64,000 bases of DNA, from positions 5,587-69,586 of IMG/VR virus record IMGVR_UViG_3300017766_003306, one strand, 5' to 3'. The stretch is from a virus (taxonomy: Duplodnaviria > Heunggongvirae > Uroviricota > Caudoviricetes). This document shows, in pieces, positions 34,711-46,891 of this stretch. Below the pieces are notes generated by a model. The model was not told where the DNA came from, searched no databases, and worked only from the letters and a program-made list of their open reading frames with translations. The position numbers and the translations under genes are program-made. The first letter of the stretch is position 1; each line of letters starts with the position of its first letter.

Positions 34711-36852
34711 TTATATATGGGGTTGCTTTGGAGCTTGTTTAGGTAATGGAGTAACAGCATCTTTAGCGGGAGTGTTTGCGGGGTTCATGTTTGGATCTGT
34801 AGCTTCTGTAGGAGTATTACGTTCTACTGGTTTATTTATTGGTGTAGTACCGTAAGGCTCGGGGAAGGCTTGGAAGTCCATATCTATAGCCGTGTTCAAA
34901 GCTTTTACTGCCATATTAGGGCTTACGCCCCCCATTCTATATGCTGTCTCAAAAATAGACATAAGCTCAATCTTGTCAAAGTGATTAAACGCATTAAACA
35001 CGATCTTACAAGTTCTATCTTTCAGCCCTATATGCTTGAGAAGTACGTTGTTTATAAAGTCTTCTAAAGATCTTCTGTAGGGTTTAAAGATTTGATCTTC
35101 TGCCATCTGAATAGCTGAGTGGCTAGTAGCACGGTTATAATCTGCTGACTGACCTAACAAGATAGGGGGAAGTCTGAAAGCTTGTCTAATTTGAGTCTCA
35201 CATTTTTTAACGTAATCCCCAAATAACAACTCTTTACGCTCAACATCATTAAGCTTTACGAACTCTACTTTACCATTTCTTGCAGGGGCATTGCCTTCAA
35301 GCTCTTTAGTTGTGATCCCCATCTGTGAGCGGGTTACAGCTCTTAGCATGAGTATCTTACTTGGCTTAGCATGATTTCCGCCTCTATTAGACATTTGCCG
35401 TCTTAATTGCTCAATGTCCCCTCTGCTATATTTCATGTCAGACATTAAGATTGCTAAACTGGGGATTAAGTTTTCTTTAAATGTCTCTAAGTTTATAGAC
35501 TCAGCTTCAATCTGACCTATAATACTAGCCATTTGGTTTGCCCATATAGGCTCCCCATAGCTCGTAGAATCGTCGATGTCTCTGTAGTGATACAATTCTT
35601 CTGCAATGTCTTTTTTGTTTGTTGTCGGTAGTCCAGAGTACTTGTCTATAATCTCAGGACTTCCCCATTCTACGAAGAACTGTTTATGTCTATAGACACT
35701 ATCAGAGCTAGTCGCTTGCTGATTCTTACCGCCCATTTTATAATACTCAGGCTTCTCCCATAAGTACCGTTTGTAAGATTTTTCTCTTTTAATCTTTCTT
35801 ACAGACCCGCCCCTGATTATCTCATCCTCTACACGCATGATAGATTCTTCTTTGAGTACTCTAACTTGGGTACAAGGAACTCTATACGCTTCGAGTAATA
35901 TCTTATTCTTTGATGAATCTGTAAAGTATCTAAACCCGACAAAGAACTCGTTAAAGCTCTGATAATCACATACAAGCTCTTCTAAGAACTCAGAAAACGA
36001 TACGTTGTAGCTTATGTTTGCTAAGTATTCTTCGAGTATGTCTACTTCTTTTTTTACATTAGGGGGTAAGTCTACAGTAGGGTCTACGTCTCGTTTCTGT
36101 ATAGATACACCTCCCCCTACAATGTTAGATACCATAGCGTCGATACAGGGTCTAAGGGAGGGGCTAGACTTTATAAGGGTCTGCAGTTTCTTGGGGTCGT
36201 AAGTTCTTTTTCTTAAGCCATGCGTTGCTGTCAGTACTCCGTCATAGTCTAAGTCAGTCCACTTCTCGCTATCTAAGTCGTAGTATTTAGATATATCAGA
36301 TTTTAATTTAGTGTCAGGGGTCTCTACTTTTTGCTTTATATTTATTCTATTTAAGATTTTTGAATACTCATCGTCGATCTTATTCAGTAATCTAGGAATA
36401 GCTAATTGCTTGATCGACTCTGATTTTGGAGTAGTGTCGTCAACCTTACTAGACTGTAGAACCTCTTTGACAGCTTTAGATAATTCGTCTTTTCGCCACT
36501 GTGCGATAGTCTCAGCAGGAAGTAATCTACTCACGGTGACTTGAACTTCTACGCTAGGCTCAATTTCGTTACTATTTTCATCTAAGATTGGATCTGTGTA
36601 TAAGATCTCTGATCTATGAACCCTACCCCTGTCTAGTAGGGGAGTATTGTCCCCTTCAATAGATTGACTGTCGTCTAAGTATTCTTCCTCAGTCAAAGCT
36701 CTATAATTACCTATTACCCGCTCTTGCTCGGCTACTATGTCTTGTAGCTCTTCTATATGGGCTTGAGTAGTAGTGTTGATTTCTACGGTTTGTGAAGAGT
36801 TAGGCTTATTCTTCTTGCGGTTTATTTTCATTTTCAGTATGTTCCGATTCAT
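34711..36852 (-). CDS. putative portal / head morphogenesis protein
   Basis: 713 aa, in the terminase-proximal position; Pro/Thr-rich low-complexity C-terminal tail; no motif-level proof. Confidence 0.35.
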   Translation of the reverse strand: MNRNILKMKINRKKNKPNSSQTVEINTTTQAHIEELQDIVAEQERVIGNYRALTEEEYLDDSQSIEGDNTPLLDRGRVHRSEILYTDPILDENSNEIEPSVEVQVTVSRLLPAETIAQWRKDELSKAVKEVLQSSKVDDTTPKSESIKQLAIPRLLNKIDDEYSKILNRINIKQKVETPDTKLKSDISKYYDLDSEKWTDLDYDGVLTATHGLRKRTYDPKKLQTLIKSSPSLRPCIDAMVSNIVGGGVSIQKRDVDPTVDLPPNVKKEVDILEEYLANISYNVSFSEFLEELVCDYQSFNEFFVGFRYFTDSSKNKILLEAYRVPCTQVRVLKEESIMRVEDEIIRGGSVRKIKREKSYKRYLWEKPEYYKMGGKNQQATSSDSVYRHKQFFVEWGSPEIIDKYSGLPTTNKKDIAEELYHYRDIDDSTSYGEPIWANQMASIIGQIEAESINLETFKENLIPSLAILMSDMKYSRGDIEQLRRQMSNRGGNHAKPSKILMLRAVTRSQMGITTKELEGNAPARNGKVEFVKLNDVERKELLFGDYVKKCETQIRQAFRLPPILLGQSADYNRATSHSAIQMAEDQIFKPYRRSLEDFINNVLLKHIGLKDRTCKIVFNAFNHFDKIELMSIFETAYRMGGVSPNMAVKALNTAIDMDFQAFPEPYGTTPINKPVERNTPTEATDPNMNPANTPAKDAVTPLPKQAPKQPHI

Positions 36853-37766: not shown

Positions 37767-38480
37767 CTAACCCTGCATTATTTTATATCCAGTCCCAAAG
37801 CACTCGTTCAAGAGTGCGTACCTGTCCCCCAGCTCCGTTAATTTAGACATCCCTAAGTAAACATGAGAGACACTCTTTTTCTTTATGGATCCTAAAAACA
37901 TAGTAATCGTTCGTATGTCTTCTGCATTATTTGGGTGAAATATAAACGAGTCTGCCCGTTTTAAGATTCTCACATTGTACGCTTTTAGAGTATTTTCTAG
38001 GTTTGCCTTGTCTATAGGATCTTCTAAGATGCTCGGATATGTACATATAGATAATCTAGTCGTGTTTGTTTCTAATAATCTAAATAGCGACTCTGTGAGC
38101 GTTTCTTTCCCCGAGAATGAGATGTTTATCAGAAACTTAGATCTTTCTGTGAATGTAAATAATAGTTTGTAGACATAATCTAAATTAGTTGGGGGTACGT
38201 CCCAAACAATATCTATATGTGCTAACCCTCTACCGTATCGACCGCACCACTCTTTTATGTCTTCGATTAAGTATTCGATTGATGTCTCGGGTATAAGTAG
38301 AGAGTTATTGAGCTGTCTATCTATTAACGAGTTGAAGAACCCTCCCCCATAGTCCTCTTTGTTGATCACGGAGTAATCTATTATTTTATCCGCTAACTCT
38401 GAGAAGGAAAGCTGTAAGCAGGGTGTCCCTATAAATGTCGGTACTGAGGTGAAGTCTCTTTTTACGTTAGTTAAGTACAT
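37767..38480 (-). CDS. TGT/DpdA-family-like protein (second, divergent paralog)
   Basis: 237 aa; N-terminal VPTFIGT resembles TGT PxFMPVGT; DYGGGFF resembles TGT DSGGFQ substrate motif. Confidence 0.35.
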   Translation of the reverse strand: MYLTNVKRDFTSVPTFIGTPCLQLSFSELADKIIDYSVINKEDYGGGFFNSLIDRQLNNSLLIPETSIEYLIEDIKEWCGRYGRGLAHIDIVWDVPPTNLDYVYKLLFTFTERSKFLINISFSGKETLTESLFRLLETNTTRLSICTYPSILEDPIDKANLENTLKAYNVRILKRADSFIFHPNNAEDIRTITMFLGSIKKKSVSHVYLGMSKLTELGDRYALLNECFGTGYKIMQG

Positions 38481-39267
38481 CGAGATTTGAATCTCCTAGA
38501 TCTTCGTTTGCTGATTGGTAATGTGCATAAGTTGCGTTTATCTTGGCTATGAAATCTTCTAGTTTGAACTTCCTTGTTCTTGCAGTTTCCCGATCTAGCG
38601 ACGCTACAGTATCGTTATACAAGCCTTCATCAAAAGTATATAGTGTCAGTGTGTATTTTTTAGAGGCTGTTTGTGTTTCGGAGTTTGCTGTAGTGAAGTC
38701 GCTTAAATCTGTATGATTTTCAGAAATTAAAGAATCCTCTAAATCAGATGAATCATAAGATAAATCTGAACCCTCAAGCATATCTAAATCTAACATATCA
38801 TAGGGTAGTATATCTGATAAGTATTCAGACGAATTAGTCTGTAGTAGCTCAGTTAGCAAAGAGTCTAGCTTAGAGCTGTCGTTATTAAAGCGTATTTCGT
38901 TTGTCTGTAATGCTACTTTTTTAGCTGTAGCTAGATCAACTTCCCCTAAATTACATACGGGAGCTTCTGTATGCCCTAATTCTTGCAAAGCTACTAATCT
39001 ATGATTACCATTAACTACTTCAAGTTTTAATTTACCCTTAGAATCTTTTACTTCACGAACGATTAAGTTCTGAACACACCCATTTTCTTCTATGCTCTTT
39101 TTAAGCTGAGTCATATATTTTTCATTGTCTTCTTTGTAGTTCCATTCAGCCTTAATTAACTGATCTAAAGGTACATAAGCGTATCCGTTAGCTACTCTAC
39201 CCTCTGTTAAGCTCATCTGCACTGCCCTTTCCGACATTATTTTTCCATTGACCCTCTTACTTCGCAT
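38467..39267 (-). CDS. ParB-like nuclease domain protein (paralog 2)
   Basis: 266 aa; AEWNYKEDNEKYM...LEVVNGNHRLVALQELGH...ALQTNEIRFNNDSSKLDSLL, paralogous to ORF 43176..43952. Confidence 0.6.
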   Translation of the reverse strand: MRSKRVNGKIMSERAVQMSLTEGRVANGYAYVPLDQLIKAEWNYKEDNEKYMTQLKKSIEENGCVQNLIVREVKDSKGKLKLEVVNGNHRLVALQELGHTEAPVCNLGEVDLATAKKVALQTNEIRFNNDSSKLDSLLTELLQTNSSEYLSDILPYDMLDLDMLEGSDLSYDSSDLEDSLISENHTDLSDFTTANSETQTASKKYTLTLYTFDEGLYNDTVASLDRETARTRKFKLEDFIAKINATYAHYQSANEDLGDSNLDVLN

Positions 39268-39657: not shown

Positions 39658-40422
39658 TTAATATATATTTATATATTTGTGAGTTTGTATAGATACTTTA
39701 TACCCTTTTTTCTTAGCATAGTCTATGCACAGATTTGTAGCCTTCTCTGATTGTGAGATGGGTTGTAGCCATATTGGAGTTTCGTGTCTAAATCTATGTG
39801 TAGCTAAAAACTCTTCTAAGTTCTCTAAATCCCTAAGAGACCCTACAGGCATTTTAATCTCATCTATTAAATTACACATAGAAGGATTAAAGGACTTTCC
39901 GCCCGCCATTCCTATTTTCGGAGAGAGGGTTATAAAGCAGTTTTGTCTTAGATACGCATACGTTTTATCTAACAGCTTAGACGTTCCGCTTGTCTCTATT
40001 TGTATTCTAGGTCTATAAGTAGCAGATCTACAGCTCTTTATTCCCTCTATAATGCTGATTAAAGAGTCTTGATGCTGAGGATCTTCTTGTAGAGGCTCAC
40101 CGCCTGTTATTACAAAGTGCGATATTTTAGATGTATCTGAGTTTGCTACTCTACCTGCTAAGTCTTTCCCAAACTTATTCTCATACTGCCACTCTACTTG
40201 TATAGCTAACTTCTCTCTATTCAGTACGCTTAGTAGATCTTCATAGGTATTCACTGAGATGATATTTTGAGGCTGGGTATTGCTATCCCAAACATCCCAA
40301 CTAAACTTAGTGTCACAAAAACTACATCCTACCCCACACCCTTGAGTTCTAATGAATATCGCAGGGGTTCCCGTAAATGTAGCTTCGCCTTGTATCGTTT
40401 CAAATATCTCTGTTAAGTACAT
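39658..40422 (-). CDS. queE: 7-carboxy-7-deazaguanine synthase (radical SAM)
   Basis: 254 aa; N-terminal FETIQGEATFTGTPAIFIRTQGCGVGCSFCDTK matches the QueE Cx14CxxC-type cluster region. Confidence 0.75.
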   Translation of the reverse strand: MYLTEIFETIQGEATFTGTPAIFIRTQGCGVGCSFCDTKFSWDVWDSNTQPQNIISVNTYEDLLSVLNREKLAIQVEWQYENKFGKDLAGRVANSDTSKISHFVITGGEPLQEDPQHQDSLISIIEGIKSCRSATYRPRIQIETSGTSKLLDKTYAYLRQNCFITLSPKIGMAGGKSFNPSMCNLIDEIKMPVGSLRDLENLEEFLATHRFRHETPIWLQPISQSEKATNLCIDYAKKKGYKVSIQTHKYINIY

Positions 40423-40424
40423 TA

Positions 40425-40889
40425 TTATTTTCTCCCTAGAAATATCGCTGAATTAGAGCCATGCTCAAATACTTCTACTGAATCTAAGCGGACGTTTGTT
40501 TTATATTTATCATTGTATTTGGGTAAAATTACTGTGTTTATATGGTCGTAGGCATATTCTGCAAAAGCTTCACACCCTACTTTAGGGAAAATTACTACTT
40601 TAGCTAAACCTAAGTTTTCTAACTCTAATATCTTCCCTAGCTTAGTATCAGACTTAGAGACTGCTAATGTGTGATCGAAAGTCTCTTTTAAGAATGCTTT
40701 AACGTCCTTTAACTCCCCAAAAGAAATTACCCAATTTCTATGATCCAGCGTATCGGACGTGAATGTAATCTTAAATCCTAAAGCGTATCCGTGTAATAAG
40801 CTACAGTGATCGGGGGATGCTTTTTCTTGTCTGAAGCAACAAGAAAAGCCGAGATCGTTTCCGTATGTTTTAACAACTGCGTAAGACAT
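40425..40889 (-). CDS. queD: 6-carboxy-5,6,7,8-tetrahydropterin synthase (PTPS family)
   Basis: 154 aa; DHCSLLHGYALGF (CxxxHGH-type Zn motif) and ETFDHTLAV (DHH-like). Confidence 0.65.
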   Translation of the reverse strand: MSYAVVKTYGNDLGFSCCFRQEKASPDHCSLLHGYALGFKITFTSDTLDHRNWVISFGELKDVKAFLKETFDHTLAVSKSDTKLGKILELENLGLAKVVIFPKVGCEAFAEYAYDHINTVILPKYNDKYKTNVRLDSVEVFEHGSNSAIFLGRK

Positions 40890-40902: not shown

Positions 40903-41955
40903 CTATTTTTTTTGAGTATTGCTTATTGCGAGAAGTAGGTCATTCGTAAATTGACCCCACCCACTTATTTTACTATTTTGTTTCAGTAGATCAGGCAACT
41001 GTCCCCAGTTATCTAGCTCTATCAAAGACCCTAACCCCTTACCTCTATGCTTCTTCAAGACTTTATAGCCTTTATCTTCTTTACAGATGACTACAGTTTT
41101 ACATAAAGCTAATGCTTCTAAGCACACCATGCCGTAAGTCTCTTGTACGCTAGGAAGAACTACGATGTCTATAGATCTAAGCCATGCAAAGTATTCAGGT
41201 CTATTCATCATGTGCATATTATCTTCCCCGCTTCTAGGGAGTTTTATCTCTAAATTGTAGCTGTCTTTAAGCTCATGTATTACTGTAGAGCCTTTCTCAT
41301 CACACTGTCGAGATACATACCCAACGACTAAATCGGGGGACTTTCCTGTTCCACAATAATTATCTATAACATCTACGGGAAACGGAATCACTTTAGCTTT
41401 CTCAATCATAGCACTTGCTGACGATAAGCCTATAGCCTTCTCTAAGTACCTGTAACACATATCTCTATGCTCTAAAGTAGCGAATATGGGTATTACATTT
41501 TCTCTAATGATGTCATAGACTTGACCTAAAGCTAACGATCTAGCCTCTTCGCTCTTTGTCAAAGCATCGTTTTCATCCCATAATCCTGAATGATATAGCA
41601 CATAATGAGTAGGTAAGTTATTGGGCATCCCCACTGCCCGCCGTAAGTAAAGATCATCTATTGATCCTATAAGCGAATATAGCCCATCTAAGTGTATGAA
41701 ATTATCTGTGCTTGTGTATGCTGAACCCGTACCTTGTTTTACGTCTAGTAGCTCATGTAAGCACTCTAACTTATGGTTTATGTATTCTTCTATAGGCAAA
41801 AAAGCATCCCCCGCAATTAAGGGTTTATGGTACTCCGCTTTTGCCCCTAAAGGAGTGAAGTTTTCTTTTATTGTTTCTGATCCATGAACATAAGAGAACC
41901 AGTCAGAAGTGTACCTAGAATCTACAGGTAAAATCGGTATGATGTAATTTACCAT
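40903..41955 (-). CDS. GT4-family (GT-B fold) glycosyltransferase
   Basis: 350 aa; C-terminal IDIVVLPSVQETYGMVCLEALALCKTVVIC with EX7E motif. Confidence 0.65.
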   Translation of the reverse strand: MVNYIIPILPVDSRYTSDWFSYVHGSETIKENFTPLGAKAEYHKPLIAGDAFLPIEEYINHKLECLHELLDVKQGTGSAYTSTDNFIHLDGLYSLIGSIDDLYLRRAVGMPNNLPTHYVLYHSGLWDENDALTKSEEARSLALGQVYDIIRENVIPIFATLEHRDMCYRYLEKAIGLSSASAMIEKAKVIPFPVDVIDNYCGTGKSPDLVVGYVSRQCDEKGSTVIHELKDSYNLEIKLPRSGEDNMHMMNRPEYFAWLRSIDIVVLPSVQETYGMVCLEALALCKTVVICKEDKGYKVLKKHRGKGLGSLIELDNWGQLPDLLKQNSKISGWGQFTNDLLLAISNTQKK

Positions 41956-41985: not shown

Positions 41986-42360
41986 CTATGTGTAATCTCT
42001 CGTGAATGTTGTCTCTGAACCACATTCTCCATCTTCTGATACTTCGATCTTAAATATAGAATAACCTACATCACTCAGAGAGTTCTTCAAGAATCTAGCG
42101 ATAGACTCACAAGACTCTTCTCTTGGCTCATCAAAGTATCCGTTCATAGCCAGTTTGCAATCTTTTAGTAATGTATGAAACTCTACTTGCCTATTAGAGT
42201 GAGATACTCTAGCCCAAACCTTAAACTTAAATAAGTGTCTGTGGTACTGATCTAAGTACGCTACTTCGTGGGGAGCATTCTCCCATCTATGAAATCCCTC
42301 TAGGCTGAATGTAACCCAAATAGTTTCAGACTCGACATCACTTTTAAATTGATTTATCAT
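41986..42360 (-). CDS. PTPS-like T-fold protein (QueD paralog lacking the catalytic Cys)
   Basis: 124 aa; TFSLEGFHRW / HRHLFKFKVW / EFHTLLKDCK align positionally with QueD FxFxAAHRL / HGHxFxVxL / DFAELK blocks. Confidence 0.35.
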   Translation of the reverse strand: MINQFKSDVESETIWVTFSLEGFHRWENAPHEVAYLDQYHRHLFKFKVWARVSHSNRQVEFHTLLKDCKLAMNGYFDEPREESCESIARFLKNSLSDVGYSIFKIEVSEDGECGSETTFTRDYT

Positions 42361-42361
42361 C

Positions 42362-43195
42362 TTATCGTCCTCCTCCGCCCATTCTCTCTACCCTCCGTGC
42401 GTGTACTGCATTAACATAGTTTTCGTAAGCTTTTATAACCCGTGTATTGTACTTGATCCTAGTCGTAAATCCGAGAGGGCATCTGTCTACGCCTGACTCC
42501 CTACGCTCTGTGGGTTGACACTGTATACCCCTTACTGGATCTATCCTTAACTTGTTCCCAAAAGCCGTGTACTGAGCTAAGCTAGAAGCGTCTACGCTAT
42601 CGGGGAAGCATCTTATAATCAAGTCGTGCCTAGAACATCCTAGAATGTGTATCTTAGTCTCTTCAGGTATGAGATTTCTAATTGTTTTGTAGATCTTAAT
42701 AAAGTCTTCTCTGCCTTCTTTCGTTAGCATAGGTAAGCCTAAAGACGATATAGAGATGTAATTGTCTGAAGCTTCTGTAATTTCTTGGATTAAGCTTGCA
42801 GACATATCAGGTCTAATTATTCCCGCAACGGGTACACCGTTTGCTTTCATTCGGGCTGTATTTTCTAACCACTGAGAATATCTGCCTTGATCTACAGTCA
42901 TTACGACGTTGTAGTAGTCTTTGTTTCTATGGTAGTAGTCGCACAAGTCGTCAACCTCTACCATCTTCCCATGCTTTCTAGCTGTGAATACCCCCGAGTC
43001 TAGCATAAATCTAAAGTCAAACCCTTCAGGTATATTAGAGCTTTCAAGTATTTTTAAAATGTAGGGGTCTACCCCCGATACGGCATCTTTTCTGTTCCAG
43101 TACGAAAGCAGGTTGCTTATTCCTGCTTCTAAGCAGTGAGTTATTACATTTGGATCCCAACTGCTTGAATAGTATTTAAACATTGATAGTCTCAT
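42362..43195 (-). CDS. dpdA: DpdA-like DNA-guanine transglycosylase (TGT family)
   Basis: 277 aa; FMLDSGVFTARKHG (TGT DSGGFQ-type motif), Cys/His cluster in C-terminal third; embedded among preQ0-pathway genes. Confidence 0.6.
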   Translation of the reverse strand: MRLSMFKYYSSSWDPNVITHCLEAGISNLLSYWNRKDAVSGVDPYILKILESSNIPEGFDFRFMLDSGVFTARKHGKMVEVDDLCDYYHRNKDYYNVVMTVDQGRYSQWLENTARMKANGVPVAGIIRPDMSASLIQEITEASDNYISISSLGLPMLTKEGREDFIKIYKTIRNLIPEETKIHILGCSRHDLIIRCFPDSVDASSLAQYTAFGNKLRIDPVRGIQCQPTERRESGVDRCPLGFTTRIKYNTRVIKAYENYVNAVHARRVERMGGGGR

Positions 43196-43952
43196 CTAAC
43201 TTTTCTGAGTTTTCTACACTCTCTGTAGATACCGATTGTTCGGGATTGTAGTCTTGGTGAGCTTTTAAAACTCGTAGCAAGTCATCCATACTGAAAGTAA
43301 TTTTTCCGACGTTTTTCTGTATGCCTAATGCGTGAAATACGACTCTTATCTCTTCTAAAGTAAATGACTCTTCTGTGTATAGAGATAGGTTATATTGAGA
43401 AACGGAAGGGGTATAGTTTTCAGTTTCGTAAGTCTTGTCTACGTCTTGGGACTCGTCGAATAAATACGCATCGTCTACAGATATATCTAAAGAAACGTCT
43501 GATAGCATTTCCATAACAGAATCGAGTTCTTGCTGTTTAAATGGCAAGAAAGACAACGTGTCCGCTGTACCCTCTTCACTGCTTAAAATATCCATAAGTA
43601 AGCTGTCGAGCTTAGATCTATCAGTAGCAAACCTAGTCTCATTAGTTGAGATGGCTATTTGTTTTGCTTTTTCGAGAGAGATTTTGCCTAAGTTATAACA
43701 GTGTACTTTGTTATACCCTAAAGTAGTGAATGCTTCTAGCCTATGATTACCGTTTACGACTTCGTATAAGCCATCATCAAGCTCTCGAATAATGATCGAC
43801 TCAACTTGACCATTGTTTTTGATATTAGATACAAGCTTTTTCATAAGCTGTGCATCCTGTTTTTTGTAGTTCCATTCAGCTGATACTAATTTCTCTGGGT
43901 TAATATCTGCCCACCCAATAGGTAATGATGCTGTCATTATATAGCTCCCCAC
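43176..43952 (-). CDS. ParB-like nuclease domain protein (paralog 1, DpdB-like context)
   Basis: 258 aa; LYEVVNGNHRLEAF... ParB/Srx N-domain signature; directly upstream of dpdA-like gene. Confidence 0.6.
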   Translation of the reverse strand: MGSYIMTASLPIGWADINPEKLVSAEWNYKKQDAQLMKKLVSNIKNNGQVESIIIRELDDGLYEVVNGNHRLEAFTTLGYNKVHCYNLGKISLEKAKQIAISTNETRFATDRSKLDSLLMDILSSEEGTADTLSFLPFKQQELDSVMEMLSDVSLDISVDDAYLFDESQDVDKTYETENYTPSVSQYNLSLYTEESFTLEEIRVVFHALGIQKNVGKITFSMDDLLRVLKAHQDYNPEQSVSTESVENSEKLDETINV

Positions 43953-43966
43953 TATGTTTATATTTT

Positions 43967-44599
43967 CTACGACCGTATACTTGTTAAGAACTCGTCTTTA
44001 AGCCCTTGATTTTCTTTTACTTCGTCTGATACTTTACTTGTGACTGTAGTGCTACTCGTATTGTTTACGCCCCTCCAACTCATGCAAGTATGTATAGCTT
44101 CGATATGTACGATCAAGGCGGAAGGATTCAGTATTTGGATAAGGTACTCAAAGATCTGAGAAGTAAGCTCTTCCTGTATTTGAGGTCTACGAGCATAGTA
44201 ATCGACTATACGAGCAAACTTAGATAGCCCTAATGTATTTTCTTTTGGGATGTACCCGATATGACACTTACCTAAAATAGGGGCGAAGTGATGGCTACAC
44301 ATAGATTTAAGTTCTATGTTCTTTACAACGACTAACTGATCTGCTTTCCCTACGTTTGGGAACACAGTTATTTTAGGGGGGTCTGTAAATCTTCCTGCAC
44401 ACACTTCATGTAAGTACATTTTAGACATACGCTTAGCTGTTTCATTAGTGTTATGATCTTGTGCTGTGTCTATTTCTAGCACGTCCAGCACTCTCTGAAA
44501 CGCTGATTCAAGCTCTCTTAGCTTATACCCTGTTTCGCTCTGTTTTAGCACTCGTAGATGCTCATTTGATTTATTTGGCATTCTGAGGTTCCTTCGCAA
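43967..44599 (-). CDS. folE: GTP cyclohydrolase I
   Basis: 210 aa; SMCSHHFAPILGKCHIGYIP...LGLSKFARIVDYYARRPQIQEELT matches FolE catalytic core (CEHH..GK.HIAYIP). Confidence 0.8.
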   Translation of the reverse strand: MRRNLRMPNKSNEHLRVLKQSETGYKLRELESAFQRVLDVLEIDTAQDHNTNETAKRMSKMYLHEVCAGRFTDPPKITVFPNVGKADQLVVVKNIELKSMCSHHFAPILGKCHIGYIPKENTLGLSKFARIVDYYARRPQIQEELTSQIFEYLIQILNPSALIVHIEAIHTCMSWRGVNNTSSTTVTSKVSDEVKENQGLKDEFLTSIRS

Positions 44600-44929: not shown

Positions 44930-46891
44930 CTAAACAAACTCTCCGTCTTCCTCAAAATCGTCATCTTCATAATCTTCATAGTCCGCATTTTCTTCCATTC
45001 TAGCTTTAGCGAACGGGTTAGCTAATATCATCATAGCCTCCCTACTCTGTAATGCGTTTGAGACTGCTCCACACACTGCGTCGGCTAAATCCTTTGATCC
45101 GCTAGGTAAGTGGTCTATCTTTACTTTAGATCCCGCTGTAAGCTCTACAAGCTGTGTAAGCTCTTTTAGAAGTATCTCATTGTAGGGTAGACGTACACGC
45201 CCTTCATATATAGCAGTTCTCAAGTTTTGATAGTGTACTGGGTCTCTGTCTACAGATAAAGTCTCTGCTATAATCCCTTCGCCTCTTAAGATAGTCAACG
45301 ATTCAAGACTTTGATAACTATCATAAGTTACTTTTCCTATCGTTAAGCCTTGATCTCGTTTTAGTTTCGTGATTAGTTTTCTAGGCTTAGAAATATCTAC
45401 AGGGTATACTTGTGAAGGCTCTATGCTGTACACATAATCGACCGTTATTATCGGCTTCATCTCTCCGCCTACACCCTTAACCCCCGAAACGTGTGCCATT
45501 GCTTGAGCTGTTCTATCCCCTGTATGGGATAAGTCAGTATGAAAGTATCTAGGTAATTGTTTGTTAGGGATTTCACCGCAGATGACAGGGTAGTGATGCC
45601 CCCCTTCTGTGTAGACTTGAACGACATAGTTATCTACTTCTGAAAGTTTAGGGAGCGTGTAGTCTATGCACTCGTATAGACGACTAGGAAGAGTTAGGTA
45701 AGACGAACTTCCCGCTGTCGTTATCCCCGCGTGATCTCGTTGTGCTGTAAGGGGATTTGTTTCAAATGAAAGTCTGTATTCGTTAGGAATATCTACGACG
45801 ATAGAATCTTTAACCCCGTCTTCATCATCTTCTAGTATCTTGGGTTCTACTGTTTTGCTACCGCATTGAAATCTAAATGTACCTGTCGTAAATAGATTTT
45901 TAGGGGCGACTTCCCATTTTGTTTTTCGTCTATATCGCCAAACTAAGTTCGACTTTGTAGCCTTTAAAGAATTGTGTACCCCCTCAATAAAGTCCTCTTC
46001 ATAGTTGGGTGAAGAGCATAAATCTATTCCCCCAAAAGATAAGGAGTCTGTAATAAATCGAGACTCATATCGTTTTCTCATAGTGTCGAATAATTTATCC
46101 GCGTGGTTAAATCGTCTTTCTCCATGATCCGCCCGTCTTGATTCTTCTACAACATCAAAGAAGTTCGCCTCATCTATAACGCCGTAAACGATAGCTAAAG
46201 ACAATAAAGCACTCGGTTCTAGTGAGTGTGCCATCATTAGCTCGATATTGTTAGAAAGCTGAATACTCGTTGTCTTTTCTTTTTTATATGTCACTGTCTC
46301 TTTGAAGAAGGGGATCTCTTTAAATAGTTGGTAAATGGGTTTATAGATTTGGGTCTCAGTAATGGAAGGTTTAGCACTGATCAAATAAATGAGCATGGGA
46401 AAGTTAGAGTCTAACCCTTTATAGATAAAGTGAGGCGTATTAAAACAACATAATGTAGTTAAGATGAATAAGGCTTTAGTTACGACACAGTAAGACTTAC
46501 CCGTACCTAATGTACTGTTATTGATGTCGATAGCGGGCATAGGAACGCCTGACATAATATGCGGGCAAGAGATGGCAATATCTTTTCTAACTTCTTCCCA
46601 AAAGTTAAGTCTTCCCCCTAAATACTCGTCGTTGTCTATAAACTCGTCTATTGTGGGAGGTATTCTATTTGCTAGCATTAGCATCTTAAAGTAGTCGGCA
46701 TTATCGTGATCGAGTAGTTGCTTAAACGCATATTCACAATATCTAGCAGTCTGTATGTTTCCGTAAGCTTCATTAAAGTTTATTTGACGCTCTAATTCAT
46801 TTAGCATCTTTATTCTATTAGCTTCTGTAGAGTTACGCACAGTGCTTAACAAAAGATCTAAGTCTTTTGAGAATCTATTGTTTTTCCTCAC
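44930..46891 (-). CDS. terL: terminase large subunit
   Basis: 653 aa; Walker A STLGTGKSY, Walker B VIDEANFF, C-terminal nuclease region with SKDLADAV; acidic tail. Confidence 0.8.
   Translation of the reverse strand: MRKNNRFSKDLDLLLSTVRNSTEANRIKMLNELERQINFNEAYGNIQTARYCEYAFKQLLDHDNADYFKMLMLANRIPPTIDEFIDNDEYLGGRLNFWEEVRKDIAISCPHIMSGVPMPAIDINNSTLGTGKSYCVVTKALFILTTLCCFNTPHFIYKGLDSNFPMLIYLISAKPSITETQIYKPIYQLFKEIPFFKETVTYKKEKTTSIQLSNNIELMMAHSLEPSALLSLAIVYGVIDEANFFDVVEESRRADHGERRFNHADKLFDTMRKRYESRFITDSLSFGGIDLCSSPNYEEDFIEGVHNSLKATKSNLVWRYRRKTKWEVAPKNLFTTGTFRFQCGSKTVEPKILEDDEDGVKDSIVVDIPNEYRLSFETNPLTAQRDHAGITTAGSSSYLTLPSRLYECIDYTLPKLSEVDNYVVQVYTEGGHHYPVICGEIPNKQLPRYFHTDLSHTGDRTAQAMAHVSGVKGVGGEMKPIITVDYVYSIEPSQVYPVDISKPRKLITKLKRDQGLTIGKVTYDSYQSLESLTILRGEGIIAETLSVDRDPVHYQNLRTAIYEGRVRLPYNEILLKELTQLVELTAGSKVKIDHLPSGSKDLADAVCGAVSNALQSREAMMILANPFAKARMEENADYEDYEDDDFEEDGEFV

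Follow-up and report, generated by a model that had tools for sequence, protein, structure and literature searches.

A phage glycosyltransferase family associated with DpdL-type 7-deazaguanine gene clusters

The 64-kb stretch of phage DNA analysed here (the window) contains an operon for the synthesis of a 7-deazaguanine, in the middle of which lies the gene for a putative glycosyltransferase (GT). The question raised by this arrangement is what such an enzyme could be glycosylating. To our knowledge, the 7-deazaguanine DNA modifications described up to 2023, eight in number, all carry a small substituent or none at position 7, and phage DNA glycosylation is so far known on pyrimidines only. 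A sequence-only reading of the same DNA had remarked that glycosylated deazapurines are not an established DNA modification, and this agrees with full-text literature searches, which returned no description of glycosylated deazaguanine in DNA or of this GT family, although a passing mention elsewhere is conceivable. The phage itself is uncultured and was recovered from a JGI metagenome.

The glycosyltransferase gene and its operon

The GT gene encodes 350 amino acids from an ATG start codon, with a Shine-Dalgarno-like motif (AAAGGA) approximately 9 nt 5' of the start. The sequence-only reading had recognised a GT-B C-terminal signature with an EX7E motif in this ORF, and both are present: residues 272–289, ETYGMVCLEALALCKTVV, give E272-x7-E280, and the protein scores above the cut-offs of the Pfam families Glycos_transf_1 (PF00534; 30.3 bits, cut-off 26.4) and Glyco_trans_1_4 (28.6 bits, cut-off 27). 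Both of these matches are confined to C-terminal residues 245–317, and PF00534 is matched by all 10 of the aligned family members. PHROGs returned a weak 'glycosyltransferase' match, and a sequence search of the PDB gave marginal matches only, to the C-terminal domain. An AF2 structure of moderate quality (pLDDT 71) models the protein as a GT-B/GT4-like fold, with two Rossmann-like domains and an inter-domain cleft. When the protein is aligned to MshA (PDB: 3c4q), E272 and E280 fall on residues 316 and 324 of that enzyme; following the MshA and PimA literature, we take the R/K pair and the E-x7-E motif to be donor-binding residues.

A fold search identified A0A218M2Y2 (gp124 of Acidovorax phage ACP17) as the best structural match in BFVD, and matched PDB entry 6kih together with other BshA, MshA and BH4-glucosyltransferase entries. 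The sequence-only reading had looked to such comparisons to decide what the enzyme acts upon. We rejected the fold search for this purpose, since the proven DNA arabinosyltransferases of phages DLP3 and RB69 match equal or equivalent templates (6kih, 3mbo, 3c4q and 5zfk). The fold therefore cannot separate a GT4 enzyme that acts on DNA from one that acts on a small molecule, and a model that looks 'cell-wall-like' refutes nothing.

Every gene from FolE through to QueE lies on the same strand (Table 1), and the junctions between them range from a 20-nt overlap (between the first ParB-like gene and the DpdA-like gene) to a 30-nt gap. The GT gene starts 30 nt after the gene upstream and stops 13 nt ahead of QueD, so the earlier description of a GT packed inside the base-modification operon, between a T-fold gene and QueD, is borne out; the T-fold gene can be specified as DpdL. 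Terminator-like sites within the FolE–QueE run number 9, versus 6.1 ± 2.8 in shuffled sequences, and none of them stands out. A strong promoter-like site, with 11/12 matches and an extended TG, is found only past QueE. The 653-aa ORF upstream of the operon yielded no family match.

Table 1. Features of the deazaguanine operon and its surroundings (window coordinates).
Feature	Position	Strand	Evidence
653-aa ORF	44930-46891
FolE, GTP cyclohydrolase I	43967..44599	-	Pfam GTP_cyclohydroI E=2.5e-54; NCBIfam FolE E=1.2e-53
ParB N-terminal-domain protein	43176..43952	-	Pfam ParB_N 27.3 bits; phrog_723 E=2.6e-22
DpdA-like transglycosylase, 'c5' type	42362..43195	-	phrog_887 E=9.5e-10; TIGR00449 E=2e-4; Pfam TGT E=0.0066
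DpdL, 124 aa, QueD paralogue	41986..42360	-	LxxxHRHxF as YLDQYHRHLF; phrog_17812 E=6e-17
GT4-like GT-B glycosyltransferase (predicted)	40903..41955	-	Pfam Glycos_transf_1
QueD (CPH4 synthase)	40425..40889	-	Pfam PTPS E=1.2e-14; phrog_2389 E=7.6e-37
QueE, radical-SAM CDG synthase	39658..40422	-	TIGR04322 E=9.9e-53; phrog_2076 E=9e-39
Promoter-like site	39648-39620
126-aa protein	between QueE and second ParB-like gene
Second ParB N-terminal-domain paralogue	38467..39267	-	Pfam ParB_N 28.3 bits

Several of the neighbouring genes show features of their own. The QueD protein has the motif CSLLHGY, a CxxxHGY variant, instead of CxxxHGH. The DpdA-like protein matches the HMM of a family that we call c5 (E=4e-11) and is of a type other than the DpdA3 of Cellulophaga phage phiST; its similarity to TGT and DpdA enzymes is remote but consistent. 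The two ParB-like proteins are 40% identical to each other (BLASTP E=2e-34), and neither is matched by the NCBIfam DpdB model. By analogy, a ParB-like protein of this kind is possibly a DpdB-like helper.

DpdL is a QueD paralogue that has been proposed as the CDG decarboxylase of phiST, in whose DNA 2'-deoxy-7-deazaguanosine (dDG) replaces 100% of dG (Cui et al. 2023, PMC10516641). The window protein resembles both the DpdL of ACP17 (tblastn E=4e-13) and CGPG_00067 of phiST (phmmer E=7e-8). An ORF with the QueC-type SGGxDS PP-loop is absent from the window, outside which lies a further ~37 kb of the 101-kb contig, and among related loci PP-loop ORFs were found in two only (L038 and L116). The DpdL signature, together with the absence of QueC from the window, thus identifies a QueC-less DpdL-type cassette, which on its gene content is composed of FolE, a DpdA-like enzyme, DpdL, GT, QueD and QueE. 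In this respect the sequence-only reading needs correcting: what it took for a generic preQ0/CDG operon belongs instead to the QueC-less DpdL branch, that of 7-deazaguanine and dDG.

Distribution of the glycosyltransferase family

Megablast and tblastn searches with the region and with the GT found no relatives among 50,697 GenBank phages, and a word-indexed search of 5.8 billion proteins matched the GT only to itself. An exhaustive HMMER search of 1.84 billion representative proteins gave just 8 matches with E<1e-3, one of them 40% identical and a few of them full-length at 22–29% identity. More distant relatives were reached by following exhaustive HMMER with profile searches. The resulting family is highly diverged (the window GT has a median identity of 17% to other members) and carries motifs in both halves of the protein: P-x-E-P-x-E-x-R-Y-T-x-Q-W, H-A-G-x-x-D-x-x-D, F-H-K, R-x3-E-K and Q-E-T-F-G-x4-E. 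In all 79 sequences compared, R216, K221 and E280 are kept and position 272 is acidic (E in 56, D in 23); D90, D127 and D130, which lie in the acceptor domain, are each retained in 93% or more. The invariance of the first four positions is the pattern expected of an active enzyme, and we infer from it that the ORF would encode an active, NDP-sugar-dependent GT4-like glycosyltransferase, as assumed in the best explanation considered below. The window protein departs from the acceptor-domain consensus at two positions, E9->L (E in 74/79) and E145->Q (E in 96%). Both departures are shared by the 40%-identical relative, which suggests that the subclade of the window may use another acceptor or another sugar.

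The family is essentially confined to phages, since a set of 185,579 bacterial and archaeal genomes (one per species) contained a single true member, itself encoded on a MAG contig that also has the deazaguanine module. Members in GenBank include gp124 of ACP17, gp167 of the Pseudomonas jumbo phage PA5oct and its relatives, and proteins of Burkholderia phage BCSR5, several Xanthomonas phages, Sinorhizobium phage Phosso and Synechococcus phage BUCT-ZZ01. No fusions of the GT gene to other genes were found in the loci examined.

Loci containing the GT were gathered from the contigs that encode distant members and from a scan of IMG/VR with the family patterns, in neither case with any use of neighbouring genes. 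Genes of the deazaguanine module are nevertheless present within a few kb in 36/36 non-redundant loci (DpdL in 35, FolE in 31, QueE in 30 and QueD in 25), accompanied by a member of one of two DpdA-like families, c5 or c14. Of the 71 non-identical GT loci, all but one contain DpdL (70) and 67 contain a DpdA-like gene; these genes share the strand of the GT in every case, and the GT gene is frequently immediately next to the DpdA-like gene or overlaps it. Genes for ParB-like proteins recur as well, and in one case (L092:10025-11557) DpdA and ParB are fused. This linkage holds across GT members that are only ~17–25% identical and across unrelated backbones, which include those of jumbo Pseudomonas phages and of marine metagenomic contigs. 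Among the recurrent neighbours we found no genes for sugar-nucleotide biosynthesis and none of the pyrimidine hydroxymethylase or hydroxylase families. The sequence-only reading had placed the GT in a deazaguanine system as opposed to a tail or LPS context, and this is upheld by relatives of 17–25% identity that keep DpdL, FolE, QueE, QueD and a DpdA-like gene beside them. It is very probable that the GT is functionally part of the deazaguanine system. The GT-containing variant of the DpdL system is widespread and previously unremarked, and the GT is a core enzyme of it.

The two DpdA-like families differ in size, c5 proteins being ~297 aa and c14 proteins ~400–540 aa. A c5 representative matches phrog_887 with E=4.7e-28, and c14 passes the Pfam TGT threshold with 31.6 bits. 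Aligned to one another with hhalign, the c5 and c14 profiles match at 86%, with DSG, D, H and DS motifs in register. In the PDB, the c5 profile matches the DNA-guanine transglycosylase DpdA (7ui4) best, at E=0.07.

The converse sampling, in which loci were seeded with DpdL, shows that presence of the GT tracks the type of transglycosylase. A DpdL profile built from a narrow alignment matched more than 585 stretches of IMG/VR, the best 80 loci of which were taken. The GT is present in 47/80 of these best loci and in 32/43 (approximately three quarters) of those flanked by 4 kb or more on either side. It is found in 33/35 loci with a c14-type enzyme, both exceptions being on truncated contigs, and in 23/23 of the well-flanked ones; in 10/15 loci with the c5 type, that of the window; and in 0/22 loci with a phiST-type DpdA3, 7 of which are well flanked and likewise all lack it. 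The nominal Fisher p of 8e-14 for this association overstates the statistical support and is not a true probability, because of the relatedness among the IMG/VR loci. The GT and DpdA3 are completely separated. phiST, for which alone among DpdL phages the DNA chemistry has been solved, lacks a GT throughout its 79-kb genome. DpdL proteins from loci with and without the GT are up to 71% identical, so DpdL probably has one and the same function in the two kinds of locus. Taken with the tracking of DpdA type, this suggests that the GT functions downstream of DpdL and is coupled to DpdA.

Possible acceptors and order of steps

What this section says of the acceptor, of the sugar and its attachment site, and of the order of steps is what we infer from gene content and conservation. 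FolE would convert GTP to H2NTP, from which QueD would make CPH4 and QueE 7-carboxy-7-deazaguanine (CDG). DpdL, as a putative decarboxylase, would then yield 7-deazaguanine (DG). The GT would move a sugar from a nucleotide-sugar to the DG moiety; since no sugar-nucleotide genes recur near the GT, the host presumably supplies this NDP-sugar. The c5 or c14 DpdA-like enzyme would exchange guanine in the phage DNA for the deazapurine, probably with the assistance of the ParB-like proteins, and the glycosylated 7-deazaguanine in virion DNA would block restriction. That the virion DNA of GT-carrying phages contains a glycosylated deazaguanine is the best explanation available to us, and we hold it with evenly balanced confidence.

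Within this scheme the substrate of the GT could be the free base, ahead of its insertion, or dDG that is already part of the DNA. The absence of combinations of GT with DpdA3 makes us lean slightly towards glycosylation before insertion, which would call for a transglycosylase with a pocket to match. The charge of the protein and the conserved Asp and aromatic residues of the acceptor domain also favour a free-base acceptor: the N-terminal domain of the window GT has a pI of 5.1 and the family has a median pI of 5.8, and such a mostly acidic family is not typical of DNA-binding enzymes. Glycosylation of DNA is favoured, by analogy, by the precedent of the T4 and 5-hydroxycytosine arabinosyltransferase enzymes, and by the adjacency of the GT gene to genes for DNA-binding partners.

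DG has no hydroxyl group, and each of the candidate acceptor atoms (C7, N2 or O6) would be unusual for a GT4 enzyme; this counts against the scheme as a whole, as do the acidity of the family, the two departures of the window protein from the consensus and the moderate quality of its AF2 model. C7 is an electron-rich pyrrole carbon that decarboxylation of CDG would free. Speculatively, the GT might be tied to DpdL because it is this freed C7 that becomes glycosylated. A fuller joint reading is that a widespread group of phages, ACP17 and PA5oct-like jumbo phages among them, replaces G with glycosylated DG, that DpdL either frees the nucleophilic C7 or clears the major-groove edge, that the GT possibly C-glycosylates the free base, and that a DpdA-like enzyme with an enlarged pocket inserts the product. 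We regard this combination as rather unlikely to be right in full.

Other explanations of the linkage can be weighed against a sugar in virion DNA. The sugar might be present only on a small-molecule intermediate and be absent from DNA, serving the solubility or channelling of CDG or DG and being taken off when the base is inserted, forming a deazapurine glycoside, or being placed, as by the cyanobacterial BGluT, on a pterin produced by FolE and the PTPS-like QueD. The acidity of the family and the similarity to BGluT would fit, but the latter match is no better than those to a dozen unrelated GT4 enzymes. The association of the GT, moreover, extends beyond FolE and PTPS proteins to DpdL (70/71) and DpdA-like enzymes (67/71), QueE and DpdL steer the pathway off pterins, and a transient sugar would bring no obvious benefit to the virus. 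For these reasons we think a purely small-molecule role unlikely. It is more doubtful that the target has nothing to do with deazaguanine, being another DNA base, a phage protein or the host envelope, and that the genes lie together through a general clustering of DNA-metabolism genes. GT4-like genes are indeed numerous in phage genomes and differ widely in target, and the fold search is blind to the acceptor. However, a chance clustering sits poorly with a near-obligate linkage to DpdL and DpdA that persists at ~17–25% identity and on unrelated backbones, with the absence of the GT from every DpdA3-type DpdL cluster, and with the frequent adjacency or overlap of the GT and DpdA-like genes; a pyrimidine target is further disfavoured by the lack of hydroxymethylases and hydroxylases among the recurrent neighbours.

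The least weight of all is given to the idea that the protein is a non-catalytic GT-B scaffold, aiding the c5 or c14 DpdA-like enzyme by, for example, binding nucleotide or DNA. Strict co-occurrence with particular DpdA types is what a scaffold would produce, and at two otherwise conserved acidic positions of the N-terminal domain the window copy has another residue. Against this stand the invariance of R216, K221, E/D272 and E280 in 79/79 sequences and the conservation of D90, D127 and D130 in at least 93%, which make such a role very improbable. An active GT through which phage DNA comes to carry a glycosylated deazaguanine thus remains our preferred reading, at the even confidence given above.

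Relation to known systems and significance

Glycosylation of a 7-deazaguanine does occur in eukaryotic tRNA, where a GT-B enzyme (QTMAN/GTDC1, GT4-like) adds a hexose to an installed 7-deazaguanine derivative to make mannosyl- or galactosyl-queuosine. The acceptor in that case is the cyclopentenediol hydroxyl of queuosine in the tRNA, whereas the window has no genes for the queuosine side chain. For DNA, the 5-hydroxycytosine arabinosyltransferases of DLP3 and RB69 provide precedent for base glycosylation by GT4-like phage enzymes (PMC13326640). These enzymes and the T4 alpha- and beta-glucosyltransferases share with the window GT a GT-B fold and an NDP-sugar donor, both predicted in the case of the window protein, and decorate a non-canonical base post-replicatively, evading restriction.

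Of the deazaguanine systems, that of phiST (FolE-QueD-QueE-DpdL-DpdA3) resembles the window in its QueC-less precursor pathway, in a DpdL of the LxxxHRHxF family and in the expected replacement of G by 7-deazaguanine, but lacks the GT, uses a DpdA3 transglycosylase and makes unglycosylated dDG (PMC10516641). The bacterial Dpd system, in which DpdA and the ParB-like DpdB place preQ0 into DNA (PMC10164549), likewise combines a TGT-family transglycosylase with ParB-domain proteins. The window cassette differs from it in lacking QueC and DpdC-K, in adding DpdL and the GT, and in being viral rather than part of a host restriction-modification island.

The closest parallels among cultured phages are gp122–gp126 of ACP17 and gp162–gp168 of PA5oct, in which a true member of the GT family (HMM E=2e-73 and 7.5e-71, respectively) has DpdL, QueE and a TGT-like DpdA for neighbours. 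These two GT proteins are ~15–18% identical to that of the window and are annotated as hypothetical or as generic glycosyltransferases; their clusters differ from the window in having a larger, c14-type DpdA and another gene order. In ACP17 the GT gene (gp124) is directly upstream of the DpdL gene (gp125), between dpdL and dpdA. Expression of ACP17 dpdL and dpdA alone in E. coli gave no dDG, which led the authors to suggest that other enzymes may be missing (PMC10516641); the GT gene beside dpdL offers a possible reason for that result. The pattern in which PA5oct DNA withstands several restriction enzymes points to a modified G, and nucleases that recognise hypermodified DNA respond to this phage, in which only QueE and a PTPS were pointed out (PMC12191111). 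Papers on MIJ3 and other GT-carrying phages contained nothing on DNA modification.

If glycosylated deazaguanine is indeed present in these phages, it would be a purine analogue bearing a sugar, the first to be found in a genome of any kind. From a GT conserved within this very common type of deazaguanine cluster one can predict a new class of hypermodified purines, and because cultured phages carry the gene this prediction is directly testable in them by mass spectrometry. The suspected 'modified G' of PA5oct, a candidate for therapeutic use, would thereby gain a testable identity. More broadly, DpdL systems fall into two groups according to their transglycosylase, a division that bears on the prediction of phage resistance to restriction, CRISPR and modification-sensing nucleases.

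Genomic setting of the cassette

The modification cassette of the window lies in a head/packaging neighbourhood, between a portal gene downstream of QueE and a 653-aa ORF upstream of FolE. A family match was sought for this ORF and none was found; homologues are present in two related loci (blastp E<1e-6). The long ORFs in the stretch examined (~34-49 kb) are all on the minus strand, and such large co-oriented gene blocks are likely reflected in the GC skew of the window, which is positive up to ~10 kb, negative between ~14 and 50 kb, and returns to positive values beyond 50 kb. The cassette itself is bracketed by two ParB-N-domain paralogues that are 40% identical to each other, the first of which shares 20 nt with the DpdA-like gene. 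Loci encoding the GT4-like glycosyltransferase (GT) repeatedly contain ParB-like genes, and a 511-aa DpdA-ParB fusion protein is found in one locus. Together, the ParB-like and DpdA-like genes of GT loci bring to mind the pairing of DpdA with DpdB in bacterial Dpd systems.

Positions of features in the window and in related loci (L-numbers)
Feature	Position (strand)	Remarks
Portal	window 34711-36852 (-)	phrog_12, E=8e-19; ~2.8 kb downstream of QueE
653-aa ORF	window 44930-46891 (-)	one 92-aa ORF between it and FolE
First ParB-N-domain paralogue	window 43176-43952 (-)	
Second ParB-N-domain paralogue	window 38467-39267 (-)	
DpdA-ParB fusion	L092:10025-11557	
CxxxHGY QueD	window 40425-40889 (-); L001:11399-11845	also L012, L021, L037 (ACP17), L038 (BCSR5)
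GT copies, L018	5674-6639; 8164-9168	family HMM E=4.6e-90; 6.8e-12
c8/c10/c13/c17 set, examples	L029:6741-7505; L020:6577-7926; L025:7506-7982; L015:7408-7995	
Nucleotide-enzyme-like genes, phiST	L041:16382-16861 (-); L041:17176-17763 (-); L137:26218-26646	phiST

Variation in QueD, and possible nucleotide enzymes of phiST

In the QueD of the window the canonical zinc-binding CxxxHGH is replaced by CxxxHGY, a variant carried by 6 of the 26 QueD genes of GT loci and preceded by a conserved FRQW..SHC lead-in. Both forms occur side by side in one locus (L001), where adjoining QueD copies carry HGH and HGY.

The dDG cluster of Cellulophaga phage phiST contains an 'unknown' gene, CGPG_00066, whose product is AAA_18 nucleotide-kinase-like (Pfam, 29.8 bits). 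It adjoins a MazG-like pyrophosphatase gene, and a phosphoribosyltransferase is also encoded in the genome; these three genes hint at nucleotide-level steps in this GT-less, 100%-replacement system.

GT relatives and accompanying genes

GT4 proteins on four Planctomycetota/Phycisphaerae MAG contigs (L127, L131, L132 and L135) score 81-90 bits against the GT-family HMM, whereas generic GT4 proteins lie well below, at about 25-35 bits. Neither DpdL nor DpdA is encoded near them. Among cellular proteins, these may be the nearest kin of the phage family.

One IMG/VR contig (L018) carries two GT-family copies within the same deazaguanine cluster, which could allow more than one sugar to be added. 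Four further gene families are confined to GT-positive DpdL loci and have no member in the window: c8, a radical SAM enzyme of the SPASM type; c10, a B12-type radical SAM enzyme resembling methylases; c13, a 159-aa protein of unknown type often encoded directly upstream of GT; and c17, an AAA_28 P-loop protein resembling kinases. These proteins may carry out further tailoring of the sugar or the base.
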